A stretch of DNA of 44,784 nucleotides. Origin: Escherichia phage TL-2011b. The notes beneath the pieces are model-generated. The model was not told where the DNA came from, ran no database searches, and was given only the letters and a program-made list of their open reading frames with translations. This document shows, in pieces, positions 192 through 38,986 of this stretch. The DNA lies in the sequence record JQ011317; one strand, written 5' to 3'. Position 1 is the stretch's first letter. Each line of letters starts with the position of its first letter. The position numbers were made by a program, and so were the translations under genes.

Positions 192-1439
192 GTGCTTACC
201 GATACAAAATTAAAAAACCTCAAGCCGCAGGACAAACTGTACAAGGTCTCCGATCGTGACGGGCTGTATGTAGCTGTGCTTACGTCAGGCACGGTCTCGT
301 TTCGCTATGACTACCGTATCAACGGTCGCCGCGAAACACTGGTAATCGGGCAGTATGGGCGTGACGGTATCAGCCTGGCAGAAGCGCGAGAAGAACTGAT
401 TGCTGCAAAGAAGCTGCTTAAAGCAGGCCAGTCACCGGCTGCGGCTAAACGTGACGGTATCAAAAAGATTCGTGGTGCCGAGACGTTTGCGGTACATACC
501 GACAGTTATATGAAACATGTCATCCTGGCTGACAGTACCCGCGCAATGAAGCAGGCGGTGATCGACCGTGACATACTTCCGGTTCTTGGCAACAAAATGA
601 TGACTGAAATTACCACATCGATGGTTCGTGATTTGTGTGACCGGATTGTCGAACGCGGTGGTCGGGCAACAGCAGTGCAGGCCAGGGAGATCATCAGCAG
701 CGTATACCGTCACGCCAATGACCGTGGTCATGGTTTGTTTAATCCTGCGGCTGACATTAAACCTTCGTCTATCGCCATATTTAAACCACGAGAGCGAACA
801 CTGACACCAGAAGAAATTGGCCTGTTCTTCCGCACGCTGGATGCCATTGGTGCTATGGGCACTATGAAAATGGCTTTAAAGCTGGTGCTTATCACTATGG
901 TTCGTAAAGGCGAATTCACCAATGCAACGTGGGACGAAATAGATTTTAAAAAATGGACATGGACAATTCCTTCAGACCGCATGAAGGGAAGCCGGGCGCA
1001 TGTTATTTACCTGCCTAAACAGGCACAGGATATATTGGTCGGGTTGCAGATGTACGCTGGTGGAAGTGAATATCTGGTTCCTGGTCGTTACAACTTCCGG
1101 AAGCCATTATCTAATGCCGCGCTGAACTCTCTGATCGACAGAACGGTGAAAATAATAAATGAAGATGGTGAGCATATTCAGGACTTCACCGTACATGATA
1201 TGCGCCGTACAGCCAGTACGTTGTTGCATGAGGCTGGTTATCCTTCAGACTGGATTGAAAAGGCTCTGGCACATGAGCAGAAAGGTGTGCGCGCCGTATA
1301 TAACAAAGCGGAATACGCCAGACAGCGCGCCTACATGTTGCAGCAGTGGGCCGATATGATTGATTCCTGGATTGACGGGGAGCATACGGATCTGATTCCG
1401 TTCTCCCCGTCGAAGTTTGAGAAGTGGATGGCGGGATAA
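192..1439 (+). CDS. int: Tyrosine recombinase / phage integrase (P4-type)
   Basis: 415-aa ORF, GTG start after in-frame stop; C-terminal catalytic signature (HDMRRT ... VRAVYNKAEY); N-terminal arm-binding-type domain. Confidence 0.9.
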   Translation: MLTDTKLKNLKPQDKLYKVSDRDGLYVAVLTSGTVSFRYDYRINGRRETLVIGQYGRDGISLAEAREELIAAKKLLKAGQSPAAAKRDGIKKIRGAETFAVHTDSYMKHVILADSTRAMKQAVIDRDILPVLGNKMMTEITTSMVRDLCDRIVERGGRATAVQAREIISSVYRHANDRGHGLFNPAADIKPSSIAIFKPRERTLTPEEIGLFFRTLDAIGAMGTMKMALKLVLITMVRKGEFTNATWDEIDFKKWTWTIPSDRMKGSRAHVIYLPKQAQDILVGLQMYAGGSEYLVPGRYNFRKPLSNAALNSLIDRTVKIINEDGEHIQDFTVHDMRRTASTLLHEAGYPSDWIEKALAHEQKGVRAVYNKAEYARQRAYMLQQWADMIDSWIDGEHTDLIPFSPSKFEKWMAG

Positions 1440-1445
1440 TAACGT

Positions 1446-1640
1446 TTAATAGTTCTGCTGATTTTCTTCCATCTCGGCTTCTGCTGCCAGTGATTCAATT
1501 TTGTCTGCGAATATTGCTGACAGCGTTGCAAATTCAGCATCAGTGACAGCGGGAATTGGAACAAACCTGATCCCGCTGTGTGCAAGCATGTTTGCAGTTT
1601 CAAGGCATTTCCTTAAATCTGCTGGTGATGCCCTGTTCAT
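1446..1640 (-). CDS. Hypothetical small acidic protein (64 aa)
   Basis: ATG at 1640 overlaps the methyltransferase stop (ATGA coupling); last gene of the leftward operon. No family recognised. Confidence 0.4.
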   Translation of the reverse strand: MNRASPADLRKCLETANMLAHSGIRFVPIPAVTDAEFATLSAIFADKIESLAAEAEMEENQQNY

Positions 1641-2287
1641 GCTGCACGCTCCCGCCCCTGGTTGTCTGTTGGTGACAGCGGAGCATTGCTGAATGCATTT
1701 GTTAATCCGGCAATATCCAACGCGTATCCAGGGTGTAGTTGCACTGCCGGGTCTTCGCACTGATTACCCCAAACATCGAAGCCATGAGACGTCTGGCGGG
1801 CGAATAGTTCAATGCGAGAAACATCGCCTAACAATTGCACAAGTTTTTCACGAACAATATCTGGTTTTCTTGAATGCTCAAGCCGCGGTGCGGTAAATGA
1901 CTGAACGATCCCTGCATTAATGCGCGTAGGTAGTTTTCCCTTTACTGCAAACAGGCAATCTTCACTATTGGCGCGAGTCATGTGACCCATACCCATAACC
2001 AGTTTATCTGGTTGTCGACTACCACATTTTATCCACGTGAATCCCTTCATGGTCATCAGACGGAATCCCCAGGCTTCAACAACTTTTAGTGCTTCGAGTG
2101 GTTGTGTTGGCACCCACCACATGGCCAACAGACAGTTTTCATCGGCCAAATCCCACACAGGAAGGCGGCAGATATCCAGCACACTCATAACTGGATATTT
2201 AAAACCGGCACCGCGATTACCATCTGCGGCTTTGTCCCGGTATGCCCAGGGTGGATCTGCATAGATTAGTGTGTATTTCTTAGTCAT
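1637..2287 (-). CDS. MT-A70-family DNA N6-adenine methyltransferase
   Basis: Translation contains DPPW catalytic motif (LIYADPPWAY); ATG at 2287 (MTKKYTLIYADPPW). Confidence 0.75.
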   Translation of the reverse strand: MTKKYTLIYADPPWAYRDKAADGNRGAGFKYPVMSVLDICRLPVWDLADENCLLAMWWVPTQPLEALKVVEAWGFRLMTMKGFTWIKCGSRQPDKLVMGMGHMTRANSEDCLFAVKGKLPTRINAGIVQSFTAPRLEHSRKPDIVREKLVQLLGDVSRIELFARQTSHGFDVWGNQCEDPAVQLHPGYALDIAGLTNAFSNAPLSPTDNQGRERAA

Positions 2288-2894: not shown

Positions 2895-2952
2895 TGCTCC
2901 ATGACAGTGGCACCACCGCCAGGAGTTCCTTCTTACCTAATGCACCTTTCAT
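2842..2952 (-). CDS. AlpA-family HTH protein, apparently C-terminally truncated (36 aa)
   Basis: MKGALGKKELLAVVPLSWSTIDRMERAGEFPVYPVL matches the AlpA/Xis-like motif (L..SRSTIYR....G.FP) but stops where the O-fragment homology begins; GAGAGG Shine-Dalgarno 6 nt upstream. Confidence 0.4.
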   Translation of the reverse strand: MKGALGKKELLAVVPLSWSTIDRMERAGEFPVYPVL

Positions 2953-3001
2953 AAATACCTCTCTTGGTTGCAGTGCGGCGCGCGTGGCGCCGCGGTGGTG
3001 G

Positions 3002-3883
3002 TTACATAGATGTTTCGTTTAATTCTTCCCGACGAACGCTGTAAACGTCGGTGGCTTTTGCCAGCAGTTCGTCATCATCTGAAAGTTTTTGTGCAATGTA
3101 TTTGTAAGCCTTATCCAGTTCGGAGACAGTGCTGTAATTCATCGCTGCGCTGGTAAAGGCCATCAGCATTTCTTCTGGCTCACGGCTATCCGCTTTACGC
3201 GTTTGCTCATCAGGCTTTTTCACTGATTTAGCGTTGATCAGACTGTTCATTCCCGCAGCCGTAGTCATTTGCGGAGTAATGTCTCGCTCAACGCGCGGTG
3301 CCGTTTCCTGTAATTCGTCAGGGGTGTAAACACCGAGAAGTACATCAGGAGCGTGCAGGCGAGCCCATCGTTTCGTGCAAAGATAGGCGAGCTGCTGGCG
3401 CGGATCCTGTTCCCACAATGGAGAGTTACGCACTCCGGCTTGCGCCATACTGATGGTAAGCTCACGTGGTTCTGCTTCTCCTTTAAGAACTGCTGACACA
3501 GTTACCGTCAGATTCGGTGATTTATCTGTTTTGCCGTTAACATTCGACCAGTCACCGCTCCAGCGATAATTCAGGCGTGTCGCCAGCAGGCTGGAAGAGG
3601 ATACGACCGCGTTTACCAACTGTGCTTCGTAGCCTAACGTTCCGTTTACCACATGCGTTTTCTGCGCCACGGCGAACGGGTTCATTCCCCACTGTGCCGC
3701 CTGCATGGTCACCGCCAGGCAATCGGCAGGTTTGCCTTCAAGATGTTTCGGTACAGTCGCTTTGCTTTGTGACATCAACTCCGCGAAACGCACCAGTTGA
3801 TTCATGCCCTCGGGGCTGAAGATTGCCGCAGCAGTGCCTACAGTTGCGCCTGGTTGTGATGTGATTGCGATATCATTGCTCAT
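3002..3883 (-). CDS. recT: RecT-family single-strand annealing protein
   Basis: 293-aa ORF recognised as RecT/Red-beta-like; ATGA-coupled to the upstream exonuclease gene. Confidence 0.8.
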   Translation of the reverse strand: MSNDIAITSQPGATVGTAAAIFSPEGMNQLVRFAELMSQSKATVPKHLEGKPADCLAVTMQAAQWGMNPFAVAQKTHVVNGTLGYEAQLVNAVVSSSSLLATRLNYRWSGDWSNVNGKTDKSPNLTVTVSAVLKGEAEPRELTISMAQAGVRNSPLWEQDPRQQLAYLCTKRWARLHAPDVLLGVYTPDELQETAPRVERDITPQMTTAAGMNSLINAKSVKKPDEQTRKADSREPEEMLMAFTSAAMNYSTVSELDKAYKYIAQKLSDDDELLAKATDVYSVRREELNETSM

Positions 3884-4701
3884 ACATACATATCCTGTTT
3901 ACGTGCCCAGTCAGGACGTTTAATAATTTCCACTCCGCCCCATTCATCGTTGATGCGGCATTCGTGATAGGTATTCAGATCCCGGCGGAACAGAGCGTGC
4001 CCGGCATCGACATCCGGCACATCCAGCTCGAACACGCGTACCGGATACCGACCACAATCAATGCTTTCGCTCACGGCAAGAAAGAAAAAACCATGCGGCT
4101 GACCAGTAACCCTCATTGCGCCTTCGCGGTACATTGCGTCCTGCACGTGGTAGCGGAATTCCTCGATGTGACGTGCAAAACGCTCCATATCTGCAACCTT
4201 TTTCACGTCGACGATCACGTTGTGCTCGTTCAGCCATTTGTCTGGACGAATTCGGCACAACTCACCAGTCTCTTCATCGTTCCAGTACATTGACGCTTCG
4301 CAGTAACCAGGTGCTTCCAGCATCCAGCGTGCCGCCGGGTGAGCCATTGCGCTATCACGCATCAGCTCCAGTTTCCGCCACTGCTCGGCATCAAGTACCG
4401 TAATCCCCATATCCGCCACATCACGAAGAAATGCCTCTTCGTCAGCTTTACCTTGTTTCGTCCGACGATCGAATTTCGGTGAAACAATGAAGCGTTTGTC
4501 GAACTCTCCAGGCTCCAGAAGCAGACAGTGCAATGCGGTTCCCATATCCAGTGCAGACTTTTTCTCTTCGTCTTCTGGTGCTGCCTGAACCCATTTAAGA
4601 AGCGCCGGATTCTTGGCAACCATGTCAAGTTGCGACTTACTCACGCCGTCACCGGCGTGGTAGTCTTCGTTGCTGATGTCGAAATAAATTCCCGGTTTCA
4701 T
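3880..4701 (-). CDS. PD-(D/E)xK exonuclease, RecE/YqaJ-like partner of RecT
   Basis: 273-aa ORF starting MKPGIYFDISNEDYHAGDG with IVDVKKV motif; immediately upstream of recT. Confidence 0.65.
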   Translation of the reverse strand: MKPGIYFDISNEDYHAGDGVSKSQLDMVAKNPALLKWVQAAPEDEEKKSALDMGTALHCLLLEPGEFDKRFIVSPKFDRRTKQGKADEEAFLRDVADMGITVLDAEQWRKLELMRDSAMAHPAARWMLEAPGYCEASMYWNDEETGELCRIRPDKWLNEHNVIVDVKKVADMERFARHIEEFRYHVQDAMYREGAMRVTGQPHGFFFLAVSESIDCGRYPVRVFELDVPDVDAGHALFRRDLNTYHECRINDEWGGVEIIKRPDWARKQDMYV

Positions 4702-4997
4702 GCCGCGTCCTTCTGTCCATCAAGCTGATCCGCCAGATCCCAGCGGGCGATAATTGCCATTGCCTCTCGCCGATAGGCATCCATCAGTTCTTCGAACTCA
4801 GGGCTGTCTTTAGCAGCCTCCAGTACTTCCTGACGAACGCCTTTGCCTGTTACAACGTCGAAAGTTGAGGACAGTTGATGAAGTCGGATGCTCTCAATCA
4901 GTTCAACTTGTCGGTCATATAGCTGTTCTGACAGGCGGTAGTCCTTGTCGAATGCCAGCATGATTTTTTGAAGATTTTTCTGCTGATTAACGTTCAT
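4698..4997 (-). CDS. Hypothetical early protein (99 aa)
   Basis: ATG at 4997 preceded by GGGAGG; overlaps the exonuclease start. Confidence 0.45.
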   Translation of the reverse strand: MNVNQQKNLQKIMLAFDKDYRLSEQLYDRQVELIESIRLHQLSSTFDVVTGKGVRQEVLEAAKDSPEFEELMDAYRREAMAIIARWDLADQLDGQKDAA

Positions 4998-5305: not shown

Positions 5306-5890
5306 TTATTGTTTGCTTTTTTCGTTCTGGCTGATGACAAATTCAATGTAACTTTCGATCTTTGCCTTCTCTGTTTCAGGTAACAATGCGTAGCGCGAGC
5401 GGTCATAGTTGATAGTTGCAGGGTCATGCGGGTGAATCAGTAGTTCATATCCGTGACGCCCGAATGCTGATGCAACATTCTCCAGGGTGGAAATGGAAAC
5501 GCTGACCTCATTGTTTAACAGGCGGCTAATTGTCACCTGGGCGACGCCGGATGCGCGGTGAAGTTTTCCCTGTGTTGAAAGGTCGCGGCTTTCGCTCATC
5601 CAGCGTTCCAGGTTGTGAGCCGCCAGCTGACCAATGTCGCTTGGTCCGACAGGCTGAACCCCCTCCTGAGAAAGCGAGCGATCGATATCAAGCCAGTTAC
5701 GGGGTTTATTGGCGGCAGCTTCAATTTTTCGCGCAACCTGGTCGCCGATAACCTTCTTGCCAAGAGCCCAGCGGTTTACCAGATTTGCCTGAGTTCCAAG
5801 TTTTTCTGCCATCCGCGTCTGAACACCATTGAATTCACGGTCGATCAAGTCGTTGAGATTTTGCCTGCGGACGTCCTGGATACTTTTCAT
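5306..5890 (-). CDS. Prophage repressor (CI-like), two HTH domains, no S24 peptidase domain
   Basis: 194 aa; divergent from the cro-like gene across a 154-bp operator region; two HTH-like segments; no Ser/Lys autocleavage module; no Shine-Dalgarno before ATG. Confidence 0.6.
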   Translation of the reverse strand: MKSIQDVRRQNLNDLIDREFNGVQTRMAEKLGTQANLVNRWALGKKVIGDQVARKIEAAANKPRNWLDIDRSLSQEGVQPVGPSDIGQLAAHNLERWMSESRDLSTQGKLHRASGVAQVTISRLLNNEVSVSISTLENVASAFGRHGYELLIHPHDPATINYDRSRYALLPETEKAKIESYIEFVISQNEKSKQ

Positions 5891-6636: not shown

Positions 6637-7441
6637 GGTTGAAGTTATCACTCCTGATAAACCTGAAATTTTTCAGATAGCAGAAATTCTGGGTATTGAT
6701 CCAGATGCTGTTCTTGGAAAGCTGGTTCGTATATGGGCATGGGCTGACCAGCAAACAATAGACGGTAACGCTGGCAGCGTTACAAAAGGAGTACTTGATA
6801 GACTCGCTTTTATTACAGGATTTGCTGACGCCCTCATTAGCGTCGGATGGCTTGCTTATCATGACGGCAAACTAATTCTTCCAAACTTTGAGCGACACAA
6901 TGGAGAATCATCGAAAAAACGTGCACTTACGAATAGAAGAGTGGCAGAGCATCGAAAACGAGTAACGCAAAAAGTAACGCCAACAGCGTTACAAAAGGAG
7001 TTACCAGAGGAAGAGGAAGATATATATAAAACCCCACACATAGCACACGCGCGCGAGAGTGATCCGACCAGTGAAGCGAACGGTACGCCGTTGCAGGTGG
7101 CAGAACCTGCATTTCTGGATGGCCTGAGTGAACCTATTGGGAAATTTCCGATGACCGATGGCTGGCATCCATCGCCGGATTTTCGACGGCGTGCTGCGCT
7201 GTGGGGAACGGCCCTGCCGGAACCGGAATTTACACCTGCTGAACTTGCTGCATTCCGGGATTACTGGATGGCTGAGGGCAAAGTGTTCACGCAGGTTCAG
7301 TGGGAACAAAAATTCGCCAGGCACGTAAATCATATCAGGGGAAAATCAAAAAACGTCGGGAAAAGCGATGAGCTTGACTGGAATAACACTGACTGGATAG
7401 AAGGGGTGTGGGATGAAATCAACTCCAGAACTTCTCAATGA
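6617..7441 (+). CDS. Replication initiator / replisome organiser (lambda O-like)
   Basis: ATG at 6617 with GAGGGG Shine-Dalgarno; contains iteron-like repeats and an AT-rich tract; followed by a P-like gene. Confidence 0.6.
   Translation: MASSWIKVEVITPDKPEIFQIAEILGIDPDAVLGKLVRIWAWADQQTIDGNAGSVTKGVLDRLAFITGFADALISVGWLAYHDGKLILPNFERHNGESSKKRALTNRRVAEHRKRVTQKVTPTALQKELPEEEEDIYKTPHIAHARESDPTSEANGTPLQVAEPAFLDGLSEPIGKFPMTDGWHPSPDFRRRAALWGTALPEPEFTPAELAAFRDYWMAEGKVFTQVQWEQKFARHVNHIRGKSKNVGKSDELDWNNTDWIEGVWDEINSRTSQ
6765..7031. repeat. Putative origin of replication: iterons plus AT-rich tract inside the O-like gene
   Basis: GTAACGC / GCGTTAC inverted pair at 6765-6783; AGTAACGC at 6961-6968 and 6973-6980; AGCGTTACAAAAGGAG at 6776-6791 and 6985-7000; GATATATATAAAA at 7019-7031. 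Confidence 0.45.
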
Positions 7442-8189
7442 GTACGATCGCTTACGTGAGCATGGTGTTGCTGTGCATGAAGAGCGGCGTGACAGCAATG
7501 GCAAAAAGGAGCAGGTCGCTAGAATTTTCAATGAACTATTTGTCCAGTTACAGGCTGCATTTCCTGCAAGCGTTTCGACCATAAGGGAGCAGAACAAACT
7601 TAATGAATTCCGTAAGCAATGGATGCTTGCGTTTCTGGAGAATGGGATCACTACAATGGAACAGGTTAACGCTGGTATGCGCCACGCCCGCGCCAGTGAA
7701 TCTCCGTTCTGGCCGTCGCCTGGGCAATTTATCAAGTGGTGCAAAGACAGCAAGATGGTTCTTGGTGTCACCATTGACGATGTGATGGCGGAGTTTCACC
7801 GGTACAGCAAGGAAAAAAGTTTATATCCTGGCGGTCCCGAAAGATTCCCGTGGCGGCATCCGGTTATGTACTGGGTTGTATGTGATACCCGCCGCGCAAT
7901 GTATCAGCGCCAGCTTAGCGAGATTGAGGTTGAGAAACACGCGCGCAGGTTGCTCGATGATTGGGCGAAAAAGGTGGCTTCCGGACAGCAGATACCCGAT
8001 CCGGTGATCAGCATACAGGCAAAGCCAGAACCCATGAGTACACCTCCGGACACAGGGAGAGACGTTTACCATCCACCAGGGCGAAGTTTCGGGTGCATGC
8101 CTAACGCCGCCACCCTGGGGGGAATAACACCGGCGCAGTGGCTGATGGAGGAATACAGGCGGGGAAAGGCGGCAGGATTTATCAAGTAA
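7413..8189 (+). CDS. Replication protein P-like (DnaB helicase loader)
   Basis: Block NGITTMEQVNAGMR and overall pattern match lambda P as recalled from memory. Confidence 0.8.
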   Translation: MKSTPELLNEYDRLREHGVAVHEERRDSNGKKEQVARIFNELFVQLQAAFPASVSTIREQNKLNEFRKQWMLAFLENGITTMEQVNAGMRHARASESPFWPSPGQFIKWCKDSKMVLGVTIDDVMAEFHRYSKEKSLYPGGPERFPWRHPVMYWVVCDTRRAMYQRQLSEIEVEKHARRLLDDWAKKVASGQQIPDPVISIQAKPEPMSTPPDTGRDVYHPPGRSFGCMPNAATLGGITPAQWLMEEYRRGKAAGFIK

Positions 8190-13690: not shown

Positions 13691-13739
13691 TCCGCTGGTG
13701 GGGATAATGTCGTTGATATCCTCTGATGAGGATAAAATA

Positions 13740-13770
13740 AAGCCCGCGCATTTGGCGGGCTTTATTTTTA
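13740..13770. terminator. Bidirectional terminator between terminase and the antisense moron
   Basis: Stem AAGCCCGC / GCGGGCTT with 7-nt loop, A-run before and T-run after; preceded by palindrome TATCCTC-TGAT-GAGGATA at 13717-13734. Confidence 0.65.
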
Positions 13771-13775
13771 AATAA

Positions 13776-14123
13776 TTATTTCTTGATAATATTTCCAGAC
13801 ATTGTGCTGGCGTTTCCACCAACAGTTTCGCAGATTACATCTCCAGACATGGTGTTTACATTTCCCAATACATTGGAACAATGGACATCACCAGACATAG
13901 TTTTCACATAATGTGCATCACCGCTTACAGTCACTGATCCATTTTCAATCTCAACACCTTCCACGCTTCCATTAATTGTTACGTTAATCTGTCCGTCAAG
14001 ATTGCTATTTTTTTCGACACCATCAACGATCACTTTTCCATTGTTAATCGTAATATGATGACCAGTGAAGTCTTCTCCGTTGACGCTAACGCTAGCACCA
14101 CGTACGTTATTGATTTTAATCAT
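13776..14123 (-). CDS. Bactofilin-like beta-helix repeat protein (115 aa), moron
   Basis: Repeats of the TMSGDV / G-x-V-x-G type; strong AGAGGA Shine-Dalgarno; antisense to the late operon. Confidence 0.45.
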   Translation of the reverse strand: MIKINNVRGASVSVNGEDFTGHHITINNGKVIVDGVEKNSNLDGQINVTINGSVEGVEIENGSVTVSGDAHYVKTMSGDVHCSNVLGNVNTMSGDVICETVGGNASTMSGNIIKK

Positions 14124-14231
14124 TATAAATCATCCTCTTTTTGAATCGAGATTAACCTCAGGAGATACTATGACATGTTTTTCATGTATGTCGTAATCTG
14201 CATCGATATCATAATTGTGACGTATCACGCC

Positions 14232-14256
14232 AAAAAAAATGCCCGGCGAACCGGGC
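14232..14256 (-). terminator. Terminator downstream of the tRNA on the minus strand
   Basis: A8 run on plus strand followed by stem GCCCGG / CCGGGC, loop CGAA. Confidence 0.6.
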
Positions 14257-14419
14257 GAACTGGAAGCAATGAGTTATGCCTTCCGTGGCTGTACTGGTTT
14301 ACAGCATGAAGTCATCGCAATGGCGTCCTGCTGTAAAAAGGGCGGTGATAGTCCTTCAAGGGAAACCATCACCGCCAAGCCCCTGGAACTTCTGGCATCA
14401 CGGTCCTTAGGCGTGATTC

Positions 14420-14496
14420 TGGCGTGGCATGCAGGATTCGAACCTGCGACCAACCGCTTAGAAGGCGGTTGCTCTGTCCAACTGAGCTAATGCCAC
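14420..14496 (-). tRNA. tRNA-Arg (anticodon UCU)
   Basis: 77-nt cloverleaf folded by hand: acceptor GTGGCAT/ATGCCAC, D-stem GCTC/GAGC, anticodon stem ACCGC/GCGGT with loop CTTCTAA, T-arm GCAGG-TTCGAATC-CCTGC, encoded CCA. Confidence 0.85.
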
Positions 14497-14818
14497 AACG
14501 CTGAGAGCACTTAGCCTGTTAAGGCGCCACACTTTGTCGCGGCTCCATAAATGCTCTCATCGTTGTACCCTCGTCTCTTCCGAGGCGTCACACCGAATCG
14601 CCGGGATGGTGAATCCCCGTGCGCGGAATAAAACCGCTCGACTTGCACATTCCGGCTACCTGGTTCGTTTGCCCGAGCAAGGGAGGGTGCCCCTTAAACG
14701 TATCCAGACCGCTATCGGCGCATGTGCCATACGCCGTACTGCTCAAAATAAAAGCTCACTCCACCTGTTCAATTTAACGACAAGCCAGTCAGGTTAATAA
14801 CCGGAATGAACCCTTTGC

Positions 14819-14833
14819 TTACCTGAAAGGTAA
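14819..14833. promoter_or_regulatory. TTACC-N5-GGTAA site in the tRNA-portal intergenic region
   Basis: TTACCTGAAAGGTAA, 91 bp upstream of the 14924 ORF. Confidence 0.4.
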
Positions 14834-14923
14834 TAATTTGTGCGTTAAATGTCAACTATCTACGATAAATAAATCATATGTGGTTAAATTGGTAATAATT
14901 TAATTGCGTACGGAGTCATTGAT

Positions 14924-15130
14924 ATGTGCATGGGTAGCTCACCATCAGTGCCTGCAACACCAGAAGTTCAGGCAGCACCACAGGAGCAGGATGCCGCCGT
15001 TGTTGATGCCCGCGACGAAGAAACACGTCGCCGTCGCGCTGCTGCTGGTCGTAGTTCTACGCTGCTTACCGGTTCTCAGGGTGACACATCAACCGCTAAT
15101 ACCAGCGGTAAAACGCTGCTTGGTCAGTAA
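14924..15130 (+). CDS. Hypothetical small protein (68 aa) upstream of the portal gene
   Basis: ATG preceded by CGGAGTCATTGA, the same initiation context as the portal gene; low-complexity product. Confidence 0.35.
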   Translation: MCMGSSPSVPATPEVQAAPQEQDAAVVDARDEETRRRRAAAGRSSTLLTGSQGDTSTANTSGKTLLGQ

Positions 15131-23565: not shown

Positions 23566-24110
23566 TGTGCGATCCGGTTATTGCTGGTGGCGCAATGCTC
23601 GCCATGAGTGGCATTCAGGCATACACCCAGTACCAACAGGGAAAATATGCCTCGAAGGTTGCAGAAGCGAACGCAGATATAGCCACTGCTCAGGCAAATG
23701 ATGCAATAAACAGGGGTAACGCTGAAGCTGAGCAACGGCGCAGAGAGACCCGACAGCGGCTTGGTACACAGGCGGCGACAATGGGGGCGACCGGCGCTGA
23801 TTTATCTACCGGTAATGCGCTGGATATATTTGGCGACGCTGCCCAGTTTGGCGCTCTTGATTCTCTGACGACGGTGAATAACGCGCAACGCGAGGCTTAC
23901 GGTTATCAGGTTCAGGCTGCCAACTATAAAGCAGAAGCCAGTTCAGCCCGTAAACAGGGGAATGTGGGAGCAGCAACAACATTGCTCACTGCGCCTCTGA
24001 AGGCATACGGTGCGTACCAGATGTTTGGTGGGACGTGGAGTCCGTTTACTCAAAGCACCCCTGCGCCAATCGGGGCAGCAGCAGGAACCAGATTACCCGG
24101 AGGATTATAA
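23565..24110 (+). CDS. Internal virion protein (gp14 position)
   Basis: 181-aa Ala/Gly/Gln-rich ORF. Confidence 0.4.
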   Translation: MCDPVIAGGAMLAMSGIQAYTQYQQGKYASKVAEANADIATAQANDAINRGNAEAEQRRRETRQRLGTQAATMGATGADLSTGNALDIFGDAAQFGALDSLTTVNNAQREAYGYQVQAANYKAEASSARKQGNVGAATTLLTAPLKAYGAYQMFGGTWSPFTQSTPAPIGAAAGTRLPGGL

Positions 24111-26827
24111 TGCCAGTCGTACCAACAGTATCAGGACGTCAGGTTGAGAGTCGTGGTGTACAAACCGGTGGTTTTCAGACCTTCGATGTTCCTCAAGCAG
24201 GTCAGGTGCTGGCGAATGTCGCAGATCAGTATGCGGTGGCATATGGTGAAGCCAGGCAGAAAGCGAATGTTGCATTGTCTCAGGATGCCATCCTTCAGCT
24301 TAATCAGCGCAGCAATGAACGTCTTTATAACCCTCAAACCGGTTTTTATGCACAACAAGGCAAAAATGCGATTGGTAAGGGGCAAGAGTACATATCTGGA
24401 TTTGATCAGGATGTGGAAGAAATAGCTGCTTCATTGACTGATGAAGCAGCAAGAAATATGTTTTTGCAACAAGCCAGAACACAGAAAATTCAGTTCAGTA
24501 CTGGAGTTCTCAGACATGAGATAGGGCAGACAAATGCCTATGAAGATGAGCAATATCAGGCAACGAGAAAATTATGGATACAAAATGAAGCGGATGCCTG
24601 GAATGACCCGCAAACTGCCACTTTAGCCAGAAATTCCAGAATGGTAGCCATTGCCAGATATGGAGCTGCCAGGGGATGGTCACAAGAACGCATTCTGGAA
24701 GAAATAGAAAGTGATGATCGCAGTGCCACAGAAATGCGGGCGAAGAATTATGCCGCTGCCAATCCAGAAGGATGGCTAAATGGTCTGTTTCAGAAAAATG
24801 ATTCTGGAGGCATGGACATGCGTGCCATACGCCTTGTTGAATCAGGTGATCGACATTTTAATCCTGATGGTAGTCTTCTTGAGGGACCGATAACATCTTC
24901 TGGAGAGAGAGCGCAGGGGAAATACCAGTTAATGCCGGGCACAGGAAAAGAACTGGCGGCCAAGCGTGGCGTTGAATACAACCCTACTGACGAACAACAG
25001 CATGAAATGCTCGCCAGTGACTATGTAAATCAACTGTATGGTAAGTACGGTTCCGAAATATTGACCGGAGCAGCATATAACTGGGGGATGGGTAACGTGG
25101 ATAAACTGATCGCCAAAGTCGGTGATCCACGTAAAGGTGAAATATCAGAAGAAGAATTTATCCGAAATCTTCCATCAGAAACACAAGGGTGGCTTTCCCG
25201 ATATAGAAAAAATAAAACTGGAATGGATCCGCTGACTATTTATCAAATAGATAACCTTGCTAATAGTCAGATAGAAAAGCAAAGGAAGTTAATATTAGAA
25301 CAGCTTGAGCCAGCTATTAATAACACCATGGCACAGCTATATAACGGTGAGGTTCCAGATTATATACCGGCTCAGGAGACCATCATCAGGGGGTATGGAA
25401 AAAACGCAGATAAAATAATCAATCAACTGGATATAGCGATTGATAACGCGAGAATATTCCAGGCAATTCAGTATTTGCCTCCTTCTCAGCAGCAAGAAGA
25501 AATGCAGAAAGTGAAGCCTGAGGTTAACGATCCTCACTATGCGTTAAAACTCGATGCTTACGGAAAATTGTCTGCATTGCTTCAGAGATCAAATGAAGCA
25601 ATTCAGGCGCAACGGGATTCACGCAGATTCAATGAGGCGCTGACAATAGGTGAAAAATTAGACCCAAGCAACAAGTCAATGCAGAAAGCTGCTGATTACA
25701 CAGAAATGGCGCAGAACTTTCGTATTAATGATGCCTCCACTCATGATGGGGTTGTTCGGCTTGTGGCTCAGACTGGCATAATGCCTTCGCAGGTCATCAC
25801 GCAGCTTTCAGCAGTATCCCGATCCAGCAATCAGGAAGTGGTTAAAAATGCGGCGGAACTGTTTAGTCGGTTATATGAAACAGACAATGCATCTATTGGA
25901 AATATGCCGAAGGATATGCAGGGTTTTTATCTGACTGTTAAGCAACTAACTGATTCTGGCATGTCTGCTGATGCGGCTATCGAGCAGGCGCAGAACCTTA
26001 CGTACAACCAGACCGATGCTCTTAAAGCTCAATTGGCATCAACGCAGAGTTCAAAAGAGTACAAAAATGATCGCAGCAAGGCGATGAATTCTGCTGTCAG
26101 CAATATGGCGCAGTGGTTCCGTTGGGATCCGTCTGCGGATGACCAGACGCCGGAAGCAGCTAGATTCCGTAATGACTATCAGACGCTGTATGACATTAAC
26201 TACCGCGTTGCTGGTGGTAACGCTGACGTAGCGAAGCAAATGACCAACCAGCAGATAGCCCGCACCTGGAGTATCAGCGAGGTTAACGGAGAAGCGCAGT
26301 TTATGAAATATGCACCGGAGGCGCTTTATCAATATGGGCCGTCAGGCTGGCAGGCGGCGCAGTGGAAAGCTGAAAAAGAACGGCTGATGTACGGTGAGCG
26401 CAAAGAGATTATAACAACCAGTCCGACGTTGCTTGGGATCACGTCAGGTAATGCTCCTGTAGTTGAGACAAAAACCCCTGAGAGTCGTATTAATGGAGAA
26501 TTATTCATAACCCCTGACGTGTTAACACCTCGTAATGGTGATTACGCCATTATGGTAAGAACTAAGGATGAAAATGGCATCGATCGGGTCCAGCCGTTTT
26601 ATAACAAACATGGGCGTCCTATGCGTTGGGAACCATCACTAGAAGATTGGGAACCTTATAAGAAAATGCAGCAGGAATGGGAGCAGTACGAGCAGGAAGA
26701 AATTATGCGTGGACAGGCTATACGAAACTTCAAAGACAAGCATCGCGCTCTGGATGAGCAGTATCAGCGCCTGCATAACGAACGTATGGACAAATTTAAA
26801 GATTACTTTTCGTGGGGATCTAAATAA
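24110..26827 (+). CDS. Internal virion/ejection protein with lytic transglycosylase (SLT) domain
   Basis: ATG at 24110 with GGAGGA Shine-Dalgarno (TAATG overlap); SLT-like motif RLVESG ... GKYQLMPGTG ... AAYNWGMGN. Confidence 0.7.
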   Translation: MPVVPTVSGRQVESRGVQTGGFQTFDVPQAGQVLANVADQYAVAYGEARQKANVALSQDAILQLNQRSNERLYNPQTGFYAQQGKNAIGKGQEYISGFDQDVEEIAASLTDEAARNMFLQQARTQKIQFSTGVLRHEIGQTNAYEDEQYQATRKLWIQNEADAWNDPQTATLARNSRMVAIARYGAARGWSQERILEEIESDDRSATEMRAKNYAAANPEGWLNGLFQKNDSGGMDMRAIRLVESGDRHFNPDGSLLEGPITSSGERAQGKYQLMPGTGKELAAKRGVEYNPTDEQQHEMLASDYVNQLYGKYGSEILTGAAYNWGMGNVDKLIAKVGDPRKGEISEEEFIRNLPSETQGWLSRYRKNKTGMDPLTIYQIDNLANSQIEKQRKLILEQLEPAINNTMAQLYNGEVPDYIPAQETIIRGYGKNADKIINQLDIAIDNARIFQAIQYLPPSQQQEEMQKVKPEVNDPHYALKLDAYGKLSALLQRSNEAIQAQRDSRRFNEALTIGEKLDPSNKSMQKAADYTEMAQNFRINDASTHDGVVRLVAQTGIMPSQVITQLSAVSRSSNQEVVKNAAELFSRLYETDNASIGNMPKDMQGFYLTVKQLTDSGMSADAAIEQAQNLTYNQTDALKAQLASTQSSKEYKNDRSKAMNSAVSNMAQWFRWDPSADDQTPEAARFRNDYQTLYDINYRVAGGNADVAKQMTNQQIARTWSISEVNGEAQFMKYAPEALYQYGPSGWQAAQWKAEKERLMYGERKEIITTSPTLLGITSGNAPVVETKTPESRINGELFITPDVLTPRNGDYAIMVRTKDENGIDRVQPFYNKHGRPMRWEPSLEDWEPYKKMQQEWEQYEQEEIMRGQAIRNFKDKHRALDEQYQRLHNERMDKFKDYFSWGSK

Positions 26828-31227: not shown

Positions 31228-31237
31228 AACAGCGAAG

Positions 31238-31250
31238 CCCCACGGTGGCC
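31238..31250. promoter_or_regulatory. Second Omnt-like palindrome between the arc-like and ant genes
   Basis: CCCCACGGTGGCC with core CCACGGTGG; flanked by inverted repeat GAAGCCC / GGGCTTC. Confidence 0.45.
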
Positions 31251-31299
31251 AGACCGTCAGGGCTTCAGTATCGTAAAACTACGTATAGGAATTAACGAC

Positions 31300-33419: not shown

Positions 33420-33656
33420 TCAGAAGAACCCTGCTTTGTCGTTGATGTACTCCGCGTGCGTCTGGATATCACGCAGGCATTTGCTCACACCGACGATGTA
33501 GCAGAACATGGTGGTCAGCTCCGCCGCCGCGCCCGATACGTCGTGCCCGTCTTCCTGTAACTGGTTCAGCAGATTCATCAGCAGTGAGTTCTCCGTCAGG
33601 CCGAGAACACCAGACGGCGAGTGAATCAGGCTGCGGTAGCCTGGCTTCAGCGGGGC
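33420..33656. repeat. Inverted repeat arm B (3' end of ant2)
   Basis: See arm A at 32008-32244. Confidence 0.7.
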
Positions 33657-34115
33657 GCTGTAGGTTTTGTTCTCTATCTTCATCGCCTGCATCACTGCTG
33701 ACGCCGTGGCGTTGGCTACCTGGTCGGCAACCATCTTTATGCGTTCTTCCTGCGGGAGCGAGTTTTTAATGTAACTTCCGGTGCGGCGGATCTGAGGAAG
33801 AACCTCACCTGTAACCCATTTACGAAAGCGGTAGGGGATAGTGCCTGGTGTCACCGCATCGCGGCAGCGGAGGATCAGTGTGTAGAGGCCTGACTCGGAG
33901 ATGATGATCGATTCTTGCTCACCGCCAGGGGTGTCGGTTGAAGCGACGCCCTTCTCATCATCATCAAGTTTTCGAACAGCATCTCGATGGTTTGCTATGC
34001 CTATAGCCCGACAAACATCTGAAGCGATAAACCATGGCTCACCATTAATGACGATTACCCGTATATCGGCTTGGGATTCGAAAGAAAAAATGGACGTGCT
34101 TTTTGTAGCTGTCAT
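33420..34115 (-). CDS. Anti-repressor (Ant/Bro-N) family protein 2
   Basis: 231 aa; Bro-N-like N-terminus (VIVINGEPWFIASDVCRAIGI); C-terminal 77 aa identical to ant1. Confidence 0.7.
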   Translation of the reverse strand: MTATKSTSIFSFESQADIRVIVINGEPWFIASDVCRAIGIANHRDAVRKLDDDEKGVASTDTPGGEQESIIISESGLYTLILRCRDAVTPGTIPYRFRKWVTGEVLPQIRRTGSYIKNSLPQEERIKMVADQVANATASAVMQAMKIENKTYSAPLKPGYRSLIHSPSGVLGLTENSLLMNLLNQLQEDGHDVSGAAAELTTMFCYIVGVSKCLRDIQTHAEYINDKAGFF

Positions 34116-34384
34116 AGTGGTTACCTTTTAGTCTGGTTAATCACCACTACCGACGCCAATCGGTTGGTGGTGAACTGTGCAGGGTTGGCGTAACCGGCTA
34201 AAAGGACCCGGCGCACCTTTCGGTGCCCCCACACAGCCCACCATAATACGAATGTGGCCGTGCTATACGCATAAAAAAACCGCTTGCGCGGTGAATGCGC
34301 CTTTTAGTAATCCGGGACGCCAATCCCGGCACTGGATTTTTCCAGTGCCCGATTACTATGGCACAAGAGGAGTGCGATGTAAAT

Positions 34385-34492
34385 TTACCGCAAAGGTAAT
34401 GATAAGCGCGGGGATATATAAAAATCAACCGTATTTGGTTGGTGGCGTTTAACGCTTGATCACCTGAAAGCAAGATATTACCTTTAAGGTAA
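34385..34492. promoter_or_regulatory. Two TTACC-N5-GGTAA sites in the 400-bp noncoding region upstream of ant2 and the zinc-ribbon membrane protein gene
   Basis: TTACCGCAAAGGTAA (34385-34399) and TTACCTTTAAGGTAA (34478-34492). Confidence 0.45.
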
Positions 34493-37879: not shown

Positions 37880-38986
37880 ATGAATAATAAAGGTAATATA
37901 ATTCAAAGTCTTACATCGTTGAGAATGTTTGCCGCTCTTGGTGTTTTTGTTAGTCACCTTGGGCTATTGTCTCAATCATCAATTGGTGTGTTTAATGCTG
38001 CGGCAAAGTATTTTTTTAATGGTTACATAGGTGTGACATTTTTCTACATTCTTTCTGGTTTTATTATAAACTATAGTTTCATAAATCATGTAGAAAAAGA
38101 AGCATTCAGCAATAAAGATTTTATTGTGTACAGAATAGCAAGAATATTTCCTGTGCATATTGTAGCTCTTCTTTGCTTTATTTTAATATTTATGCATGGT
38201 AAGATGGGTGATGGTATTAGTAAGGAAATGCTTATTTCAAATGTGTTTCTGGTGCAGTCATTCATCCCAATTCAGGATTATTATTTTTCTTTTAACTCCG
38301 TTTCATGGAGTATCTCATGTGAGATGTTTTTCTACGTTTCATTCTGCTTCTTAACAAGGCTAAAAACAAAATATTTAGTCTGTGTTCTGTTATTTGTTCT
38401 TGTGATTAATTTCTATTTCTTAATTAACCCGCCCATAACAATATCACAGCACTGGTTGTTTTATATAAACCCAGCATTTAGAATTGGTGATTTTATTATA
38501 GGGATGATGCTCTGTAGAGTATTTATTAATACTAGTGCAAGACCTAACAATACTGTTTGCAGTATCATTGAAATTGCATCAATATTGTCATTGCTTTTGA
38601 CAGTATATATAGCAACAAACTATATTACATATATGAATATAAAGTATGATGTTCTATATATTCCTTGCATGGCATTTATAGTTATTGCCTTTGCTTTTAA
38701 TGGTGGGATATTATCTAAAATTCTTAAAAATAGATTTATGGTTTTGCTTGGCGAGGCTTCTTTTTCATTTTATATGTTTCACTGGATGATTATTCAAATA
38801 GTAACAAAAATATTGAGCGTAGAAAAAGACAACTTTATCGATATGTTGGTGTATGTTGTTTTATCTTTGTTTGTTTCTATTATTGCATCAATACTATCAT
38901 TCAAGTTGATAGAAATGCCAATAAATAAAACAATAAGAAGATGTTGGAAAAAATATAGGGGGATGCAGTCTGTCAGGAGTGCATGA
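37880..38986 (+). CDS. Acyltransferase family 3 membrane protein (O-antigen O-acetyltransferase, serotype conversion)
   Basis: 368 aa, about 10 predicted TM helices, AT-rich; N-terminal R..AALGVFVSH pattern typical of acyltransferase-3 proteins. Confidence 0.75.
   Translation: MNNKGNIIQSLTSLRMFAALGVFVSHLGLLSQSSIGVFNAAAKYFFNGYIGVTFFYILSGFIINYSFINHVEKEAFSNKDFIVYRIARIFPVHIVALLCFILIFMHGKMGDGISKEMLISNVFLVQSFIPIQDYYFSFNSVSWSISCEMFFYVSFCFLTRLKTKYLVCVLLFVLVINFYFLINPPITISQHWLFYINPAFRIGDFIIGMMLCRVFINTSARPNNTVCSIIEIASILSLLLTVYIATNYITYMNIKYDVLYIPCMAFIVIAFAFNGGILSKILKNRFMVLLGEASFSFYMFHWMIIQIVTKILSVEKDNFIDMLVYVVLSLFVSIIASILSFKLIEMPINKTIRRCWKKYRGMQSVRSA

Follow-up and report, generated by a model that had tools for sequence, protein, structure and literature searches.

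A conserved pseudoknotted RNA in the leftward leader of an epsilon15/phiV10-like prophage, with a possible role in antitermination

A short unit on the minus strand lies among the rightward late genes of Escherichia phage TL-2011b (sequence record JQ011317; its 44,784 nucleotides (nt) are called the window here), and the question that it raises is what the long stretch at its head is for. As judged from the region around the unit, the window is an epsilon15/phiV10-like (Uetakevirus) prophage. The original prediction, made from the letters of the window, described an antisense island between terminase and portal genes with a tRNA-Arg(UCU), a gene for a protein of 115 amino acids (aa) and terminators, and all of these are present. 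The island forms a leftward transcription unit, most likely under repressor control, and such a unit belongs to the usual equipment of epsilon15/phiV10-like phages. On the minus strand it consists of a promoter-like site under an operator, an untranslated leader of ~700 nt and a single variable cargo gene. The leader contains an RNA domain, a branched tail hairpin, the tRNA, a small hairpin, a predicted terminator (T1), an inter-terminator segment and a second predicted terminator (T2), followed by 108 nt, the 115-aa open reading frame (ORF) and a bidirectional terminator (Table 1). The ~420 bp upstream of the tRNA had been called noncoding. No reading frame is conserved in them, but a conserved structured RNA domain at 14550-14742 had been overlooked, and it is this domain that may answer the question.

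When 14497-14923 was searched with BLAST, it matched unannotated DNA of very different phages at roughly 77-84% identity over 163-241 bases. These were lambdoid phages (mEp460, cdtI, 2H10, Ayreon, Stx2c and some Stx2a phages) and P1, P7, D6, SJ46 and RCS47. The N4-like Klebsiella phage SopranoGao, a Stenotrophomonas phage and the lambdoid phage mEp390 matched over a shorter length, ~95-115 bases, with 75-77% identity. Alignment of the 12 copies derived from BLAST showed invariant blocks between hairpins of differing sequence in which the pairing was kept. More copies were fetched with the invariant 19-mer GGTAGCCGGAATGTGCAAG and reduced to 45 representatives, 35 of which were aligned. Pairs were counted in these 35 copies for five helices (H1, H2, H5, the CACC/GGUG pseudoknot and H6; 25 pairs). 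Standard pairs occupied 95.5% of the cells, compared with 31-50% when the 3′ partners were slid by 1-3 columns. Changes on both sides were seen in 12 of the 25 pairs (76 cells), and none of 500 shuffles reached any of the observed measures. Columns 11-23, for example, were G-C in 19 copies and A-U in 14, columns 37-92 were C-G in 24 and U-A in 11, columns 177-188 were C-G in 24 and G-C in 10, and the pseudoknot columns 147-167 were C-G in 30 and A-U in five. Columns 35-94 formed a U-G pair in all 35 copies. Since G-U pairs would be A-C on the opposite strand, the functional strand is the minus strand of the window, which is also that of the tRNA.

A covariance model (R1) built from the 35-copy alignment gave 99 matches in 98 sources. 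RNAalifold run on these 99 copies independently recovered H2, H5 and H6. It also paired GCACAU in the H1 loop with the invariant AUGUGC as an H-type pseudoknot, both strands of which are invariant and hence beyond the reach of covariation. The spacing between conserved blocks fell into all three classes modulo 3 (35/25/20 and 27/13/40), which excludes a conserved reading frame and hence a coding function. Both that a covariation-supported, pseudoknotted RNA of about 170-190 nt exists at 14550-14742 and how it is folded are well supported. When both strands of 14497-14923 were compared with Rfam 15, nothing matched even with permissive filters and a cut-off of E≤10, and the mEp460 leader gave no match at E≤0.1; the domain appears to be a previously unannotated family that is absent from Rfam. 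Full-text literature searches found it described nowhere, though some possibly relevant literature lay outside their coverage; a preprint on the Pas/STnc100 small RNA (sRNA) concerned other loci.

The domain was present in 86 phage records, including those of Uetakevirus, lambdoid phages, P1/P7/D6/SJ46, Lastavirus and a Stenotrophomonas phage. The domain region was matched in 1077 of the 5426 complete E. coli genomes (~20%), with 276 places on plasmids. The exact 19-mer occurred in at least 120 viral contigs and in genomes of 24 species, nearly all Enterobacteriaceae; one of the 24, L024, matches by chance. An RNA is annotated at the domain in none of the listed records, a hypothetical protein in a few. 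The protein genes drawn over it (mEp460_037, at 2934-3302 (+) of L002, and others in Ayreon, PhiR63_1, JL22 and further records) are probably spurious, as the domain has no conserved reading frame.

The place of the domain in other genomes is informative. In the lambdoid phages mEp460, mEp390, Stx2a_1447 and BUCT708 and in contig L056, it comes immediately downstream of a CI-type repressor gene, where the leftward early (PL) operon begins, and lies on the strand that is transcribed. The order in mEp460 is the cI terminator, a promoter (TTGCAT-17-TATCTT), ~40 nt, the domain, the tail hairpin, ~150 nt, T1 with CUUUUUAC, a long T2 helix with a U-run, and the first gene. No plausible ORF was found before the terminators of mEp460, and its record annotates a Q-type late regulator and no N gene. 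mEp390 follows the same plan with the promoter TTGACA-18-TACATT. A stringent sigma-70 match lay within 200 nt upstream of the domain in 15 of the 45 representatives as against none of 45 control windows. In five of those 15 the -10 element ends 7-8 nt before H1, so that the RNA there starts with the domain. In P1 the domain is on the transcribed strand of the C1-controlled ban operon, between trnI and ban. In every context its orientation is that of the surrounding transcription. An obligatory link between domain and tRNA, suspected from trnI of P1 and from the window, was rejected, most of 57 scanned loci having no tRNA nearby.

In the window, the TTACC-N5-GGTAA palindrome noted in the original prediction is indeed present upstream of the domain. 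It is not a lone site, being one of 14 copies (up to one mismatch) throughout the prophage where 0.6 would be expected, and none of 100 shuffles reached 14. Two pairs of copies, 5172/5234 and 5946/5994, flank a gene for a Cro/C1-type helix-turn-helix protein (HTH_3; 5306-5890, minus strand), and the epsilon15 record annotates the equivalent site as a repressor binding site/operator. The TTGACA-17-TACCTT site of the window, operator included, is also found immediately upstream of the RNA domain in a Buttiauxella locus (L035). The set of palindromes looks like a putative operator regulon of the prophage repressor. Over-representation of the operator, the pairs flanking the HTH gene and the epsilon15 annotation make it most likely that the leftward unit is controlled by that repressor. 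Between the presumed start and the domain, the motif GUCGUUAAAU is kept in Uetakevirus-type copies (Tyrion, L039, L073 and L027).

Downstream of the domain, T1, T2 and the hairpin at 13733-13769 each have a GC-rich stem and a U-run and are predicted intrinsic terminators. Two of them had been proposed before: the one at 13740-13770 corresponds to the strong bidirectional hairpin, and the one at 14232-14256 came out of the terminator scan as a hairpin with U8; T1 was absent from the earlier list. Hairpins homologous to T1 and T2 follow the domain at a distance of roughly 140-580 nt at about 20 of the 45 representative loci, both lambdoid and Uetakevirus, and their stems carry compensatory changes (GGCGGUGAUGG/CUAUCACCGCC, GGCGGUACCAG/CUGGUACCGCC and GGCGGUGGCAG/CUGACCACCGCC). 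In lambdoid phages without an annotated N gene, the domain and the T1/T2 module usually stand together at the start of the PL operon. No ORF lies between the domain and T1/T2, and the first gene lies beyond them. In the relatives L011, L012, L020, L027, L032 and L104, the ribosome-binding site and ATG of the cargo gene are within about 15 nt of the U-run of T2, so that cargo expression there must depend on read-through.

A similar layout is known from the put RNAs. putL and putR of HK022 and the putL-like RNA of HK639 are cis-acting processive antiterminators. Once transcribed, such an RNA binds its own RNA polymerase at the beta′ zinc-binding domain, and this polymerase then reads through terminators; in both phages PL is followed by the put RNA and then by terminators and genes (PMC9378689). 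Like put, the domain is a structured RNA located just after the early promoter, at the very start of a repressor-controlled PL operon in lambdoid phages without an annotated N gene, with terminators after it and no protein gene between. By eye, H1 (ACGGCG...CAUGCGYCG) also resembles stem I of putL (ACGGCG...CAUGCGUCG). Unlike put, which has ~70 nt and two stems, the domain has 170-190 nt and five helices including at least one pseudoknot. It is present in one copy per phage; a second, putR-like copy was not found by R1 in the window, mEp460, P1 or others. It also occurs outside the lambdoids, in Uetakevirus, P1-like and Lastavirus genomes. Domain and put would be related by functional analogy only and not as homologues.

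Because an early repressor-controlled promoter, a folded RNA, terminators and genes with no antiterminator protein gene between them make up the put arrangement, we propose that the domain may be a cis-acting, put-like processive antiterminator, and we give this a probability of about 0.45. Transcription would start at the derepressed leftward early promoter, and the polymerase would make the RNA domain first. The domain would then act in cis, in the manner of put, on the polymerase that has just made it, and the modified polymerase would resist T1, T2 and later terminators. Only transcripts begun at the derepressed early promoter would thus reach the downstream gene or genes. The embedded tRNA would be freed by normal processing and would decode the AGA codons frequent in phage genes, and the 115-aa beta-solenoid protein would be the product of one interchangeable early accessory gene. 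The function of the domain is put forward in this form as an explicit, testable hypothesis based on analogy.

Several points weigh against cis antitermination. The leftward -10 element of the window, TACCTT, is weak (3/6 matches) and was missed by the consensus promoter scan. T2 is separated from the cargo ATG by the 108 nt mentioned above, and the gene could have an unrecognised promoter of its own; the promoter scan gave no minus-strand match within those 108 nt. Downstream of the domain of P1 and of that of SopranoGao there is no strong terminator. Two home-made scans for an excess of sense-strand terminators downstream of the domain did not separate the strands, the strict one missing long-loop hairpins and the loose one giving more antisense matches, and T1/T2 rest on homology. 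The T2 helix has no U-run in some lambdoid versions (mEp390) and may be a structural element there. The domain, with about 170-190 nt and a candidate second pseudoknot, is much more complex than the ~70-nt put RNAs. Homology with put, which the first hairpin had suggested, was rejected: R1 gave no match at E≤1 in the putL/putR locus of HK022 (L010) or in the whole genome of HK639, where a putL-like RNA is annotated at 34187-34312. Finally, because copies for the large alignments were fetched with the exact 19-mer, they could not differ in the 19-nt block, and its invariance there is in part artificial; the evidence for it comes from the 12 BLAST copies, in which the block was invariant too.

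The same features may be read in other ways, one of which is compatible with the cis model. In it the domain would be a trans-acting noncoding RNA: transcripts would end at T1/T2, a cut by RNase P at the tRNA would free the 190-nt domain, and the product could for example serve as a decoy or sponge of a host RNA-binding protein, act against defence or regulate by base pairing, comparable to the short RNAs that arise at lambdoid PR′ when transcription ends early. T1, a strong and conserved hairpin with a U-run, does follow the domain, and the highly conserved unpaired blocks and pseudoknots would suit a specific binding partner. The P1 domain lies beside a tRNA with no strong terminator after it, as for a processed stable RNA, part of the related leader of Salmonella phage ST64B has a sub-threshold match to STnc100 (35 bits, E 8e-6), and a precedent for terminated phage leaders as sRNAs is reported (PMC7547250). 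We nevertheless consider such an RNA, the main rival of the cis model, unlikely, though its probability is not negligible. The lambdoid leftward early operon lies entirely beyond T1/T2 with no other obvious promoter, so that polymerase must pass T1/T2; in every case the domain precedes operon genes in the same orientation, and it never stands alone as a unit; and a conserved single-stranded seed with an identified target was not found. It is improbable that the domain is instead a recognition site or sensor, that is, a nut-like platform for Nus factors or a phage protein, or a riboswitch-like element controlling read-through of T1/T2 in response to a ligand or temperature. As in the lambda nut and rrn boxA systems, the early-operon leader RNA carries boxA-like strings (GUGCUCUCA at 14502-14510 and GUCGUUAAAU at 14772-14781), and a tRNA is embedded in it as in rrn operons. 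A small hairpin follows a boxA-like string in mEp460 at the position of boxB, the alternative pairing of the H1 region with the invariant strand proposed by RNAalifold excludes part of H1 and could be a switch, and the complexity of the domain is typical of riboswitch aptamers. Unlike lambda, however, these phages have no N-like arginine-rich ORF upstream of T1/T2, their first downstream proteins lack such a motif, and no GNRA-like boxB loop was found; the boxA resemblance was judged by eye, and a stable hairpin encloses one of the two strings. The distance from domain to T1, about 140-580 nt, may contain a whole tRNA, which is unlike riboswitch expression platforms, and no Rfam riboswitch was matched.

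The original prediction in effect described a simple moron, in which a rare-codon tRNA and a bactofilin-like cytoskeletal protein are accompanied by an ordinary spacer and one protein-binding site. The tRNA and the ORF are real, AGA is frequent in phage ORFs, and the slot holds different cargo genes in different phages, all of which fits. But the supposed spacer is a covariation-supported RNA common to unrelated phage types, and membership of the bactofilins failed all tests run, so that the covariation and Pfam results largely refute this reading and leave it very improbable. That the conserved stretch of 190 nt is a gene for a small protein, the annotation given in mEp460 and a few other records, has next to no probability. 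There are stop-free runs of about 50-60 codons on both strands, and some records do annotate a hypothetical protein. A coding function was rejected by the frame-spacing test, the distances between blocks falling in all classes modulo 3. In addition, the 19-nt block and others are invariant at every position, would-be third codon positions included, the observed changes are compensatory base-pair changes, and RefSeq leaves the place blank in 39 of the 40 E. coli records among those listed.

RNA-only processive antitermination has very few known examples, put in HK022-like phages and EAR, the latter in Bacillus. Read-through of early terminators in lambdoid phages without N is largely unexplored, and a covariation-supported RNA sits at exactly that position. 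If the domain is an antiterminator, it would be a new structural class of a known mechanism that is very common in E. coli phages. A tentative and somewhat doubtful extension is that the domain would found a second, structurally unrelated class of RNA-only processive antiterminators, far more widespread than put, in a modular ~700-nt leader whose 5′ domain can give way to others that are likewise undescribed, as in ST64B; as part of that same extension the leader would be built from the 5′ domain, the tail hairpin, a tRNA or tRNA-like remnant, T1 and T2. The carriers of the domain include P1, a workhorse of the laboratory, as well as Stx2-converting phages and the O157-typing phiV10 group. Whatever its function, the domain is a common conserved structured RNA that is missing from Rfam and annotated as a hypothetical protein in some phage records. 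Little novelty comes from the tRNA and the cargo gene, both of which are ordinary for this phage group.

Table 1. Features of the leftward unit and related sites (positions in the window).
Feature	Position	Strand	Remarks
Leftward promoter-like site	14819-14855	-	-35 TTGACA 14850-14855, 17-nt spacer, -10 TACCTT 14827-14832; read from sequence
Operator TTACC-N5-GGTAA	14819-14833	palindrome	Overlaps -10 TACCTT and expected start site
TTACC-N5-GGTAA sites	135, 5172, 5234, 5946, 5994, 8227, 8289, 11590, 11608, 14819, 33333, 34385, 34478, 35597		Window scan
5′ leader	14743-14818	-	Presumed start to RNA domain; holds GUCGUUAAAU 14772-14781, then GGUGGAG
Conserved structured RNA domain	14550-14742	-	Covariance model R1, 156.8 bits, E 2e-42; single copy in window
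H1	14716-14736	-	Helix of RNA domain
H2	14704-14708 with 14659-14663	-	Helix of RNA domain
Candidate second pseudoknot	GCACAU 14722-14727 with AUGUGC 14645-14650	-	Proposed by RNAalifold
Invariant strand GGUAGCCGGAAUGUGCAAG	14642-14660	-	In RNA domain
H5	14603-14617	-	Helix of RNA domain
Pseudoknot	CACC 14608-14611 with GGUG 14591-14594	-	In RNA domain; H5 loop to downstream strand
H6	14569-14585	-	Hairpin with GAAGAGA loop
Branched tail hairpin	14497-14562	-	-29.3 kcal/mol, z = -4.6; 3′ arm carries boxA-like GUGCUCUCA 14502-14510; ends 4 nt before tRNA
tRNA-Arg, anticodon UCU (reads AGA)	14420-14496	-	Encoded CCA end; ARAGORN; Rfam RF00005
Conserved hairpin AUCACG-ccuaaggac-CGUGAU	14397-14417	-	Just after tRNA; kept in nine distinct loci
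T1	14331-14376	-	14-bp hairpin GGCGGUGAUGG...CUAUCACCGCC, then CUUUUUACA; terminator scan; -23.1 kcal/mol, z = -5.0
Inter-terminator segment	14257-14330	-	Conserved; ACAGCAGGACGCCAUUGCGAUGACUUCAUGCUGU hairpin; GGAAGGCA...UUGCUUCC; Uetakevirus-type alignment
T2	14232-14256	-	Predicted canonical intrinsic terminator, GCCCGG-UUCG-CCGGGC then A and U8; terminator scan and fold
Cargo gene, 115-aa small beta-solenoid protein	13776-14123	-	Three TMSGD(V)xC repeats
Predicted bidirectional intrinsic terminator	13733-13769	both	-20.7 (-) and -21.2 (+) kcal/mol, z = -5.8 and -5.3; U-runs on both strands

The tail segment is shared with lambdoid phages, the leaders of mEp460 and Stx2c having ~83% identity up to window position 14497. 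ARAGORN, which placed the anticodon tct at position 35, and the Rfam model for tRNAs (cmscan, 73.3 bits against a gathering score of 29, full-length match) both accepted the tRNA-Arg next to it. It is already known and annotated in relatives and is not new: O157 typing phages 9 and 10, phiv142-3, SPN9TCW, SPC32H/N, a Klebsiella phage and E. coli IAI39 all carry the annotation, which agrees with the earlier remark that phage-borne tRNAs for a rare arginine codon are known elsewhere. The tRNA-Arg(UCU) genes of phiV10-like phages have the same anticodon and the same presumed role of reading AGA, which is rare in E. coli, and nothing notable distinguishes the present one. Other tRNA-Arg(UCU) genes are argN and argO of Stx phages and argU of the host. 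The AGA count that had been suggested as a check gave 99 codons in 61 window ORFs (a rough set), or 7.5 per 1000 and 12.5% of arginine codons. AGA is near 2 per 1000 in E. coli, and the usual rationale for a phage tRNA thus applies. The codons are concentrated in a few large late genes, with 14 in 24035-26827 and nine of the 12 arginine codons in 37880-38986.

The AUCACG...CGUGAU hairpin after the tRNA is kept even where no tRNA gene was found (L020, L027 and L032). At the place of the tRNA 3′ end (window 14420-14440), L002 (2880-2910, minus strand), L020, L027, L032, L066 and L146 have a short hairpin and then CACCACAAC, upstream of T1 (e.g. GCCGGAGAUCAGCACCGGCCACCACA). ARAGORN found no tRNA in L002, L020, L027, L032 or L066, the five of these loci that it scanned. 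The short hairpin with CACCACAAC may be what is left of a tRNA, or else a mini-helix that resembles one. A tRNA-Ile(AAU)-like gene is found at some other loci (L018 and L038).

The cargo ORF has an AGAGGA ribosome-binding site upstream. Its product had no match in Pfam or NCBIfam. It matched phrog_3163, a PHROG of unknown function, at E 7.2e-37, with residues 2-115 on profile positions 6-120 of 121. The ORF is real, as 1096 homologues were found at E≤0.001, mostly of 105-138 aa; the few named sources are Enterobacter, Acinetobacter, Shewanella, Fusobacterium and Gilvimarinus. G, T, M and S are invariant in the three repeats when the homologues are aligned, and the AlphaFold model is confident (predicted local distance difference test score (pLDDT) 87) and all-beta, in keeping with the beta-helix-type repeats that had been proposed. 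The likeness to bactofilins did not hold up. It consists in a small protein with short beta-strand repeats rich in G, V and D; PF04519 matched neither the window protein nor appeared among the 25 Pfam families commonest in 40 relatives, and no bactofilin chain was returned by PDB sequence and fold searches with the 115-aa protein. DUF4097 'Toastrack' (PF13349) gave weak matches in 15 of the 40 relatives (best E 0.0016, far below the gathering score) and none for the window protein. Resemblance in fold to DUF4097 and other small beta-solenoid domains is generic, and the TMSGDVxC repeat is specific to the ~115-aa family. The protein adds one member to a large family of small beta-solenoid proteins that is associated with phages and uncharacterised.

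Between the terminase gene and the tRNA, different Uetakevirus phages have unrelated genes, namely one for a PF13876 protein (phiV10-type), one for a DUF2829 protein (a Klebsiella phage) and others in PAS61, Tyrion and SPN1S. The 115-aa gene was found in 11 of the 5426 complete E. coli genomes, compared with 504 that have at least 80% of the adjacent 427-bp region, and is a rare allele in a variable cargo slot. Homologues of the protein occur elsewhere in prophages. One in an Enterobacter prophage (L162) is encoded between scaffold-like and major capsid genes, and those in Acinetobacter baumannii prophages (L163-L165) right after an S24 (CI-type) repressor gene in the same orientation.

Flanking the island are genes for the small terminase (PF03592), the large terminase (phrog_2), a 68-aa protein (phrog_831) and the portal protein (PF12236). 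Positions 14233-15000 are 99.6% identical to phiV10 and O157 typing phages 9 and 10, and the E. coli IAI39 chromosome matches 462 bases containing the 115-aa ORF at 100%. The IAI39 RefSeq record has the same gene order and leaves the stretch from the tRNA to the 68-aa gene blank. The hairpin at 13733-13769 that ends the leftward unit is also just 3′ of the terminase gene on the plus strand, and the rightward late genes are interrupted there: the next one, for the 68-aa protein, begins at 14924, 1.15 kb on. Late transcription must either be terminator-resistant or restart near the operator at 14819-14833, where no good plus-strand promoter match was found.

Some further loci show variants of the leader. 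In lambdoid-type leaders GUCGUUAAAU is downstream of the domain (L007, L017 and mEp390) or within the T2 helix, often followed by GGYGGAG; it is also at about 2075-2084 (minus strand) of L008, and by eye it resembles rrn boxA (UCUUUAACAA). The IMG/VR contig L056 has two tandem copies of the domain (4787-4963 and 3980-4158, both minus strand) ~800 nt apart, of which the second is degenerate. The first is directly downstream of a CI/S24-like repressor gene, identified by sequence, and each copy is followed by an opposite-strand ORF for a hydrophobic, membrane-like protein of ~165 aa. In epsilon15 (L004) the copy at 1410-1540 (minus strand) is degenerate and shortened (35 bits) and has no tRNA. 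For that intergenic region the GenBank record lists three sites, for RNase III, for IHF and for a repressor. ST64B (L167), considered as a well-studied host of the domain, does not contain it according to R1, yet downstream leader modules are common to both. Its PL leader (7240-8050, minus strand) has the tail, a CCGG...CCGG-CACCACAAC mini-hairpin, T1, T2 and GUGGAGAAAC as in the studied leaders. The 5′ domain of ~350 nt is different, GC-rich and unmatched by R1, and the STnc100 match (Rfam prophage sRNA family; 35 bits, E 8e-6) lies at 7465-7583. This comparison suggests that the leader may be modular, with exchangeable 5′ domains.

Elsewhere in the window, Rfam matches at gathering level were obtained on the minus strand for C4 antisense RNA (34163-34248, 77.7 bits), isrK (34273-34348, 76.7 bits) and sar RNA (31231-31298, 44.8 bits). 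By these matches the set is a predicted P1/P22-type immI/antirepressor RNA control region. Further operator sites are close to a Bro-N antirepressor-like gene (33420-34115), and the copies at 34385 and 34478 adjoin the C4/isrK region.

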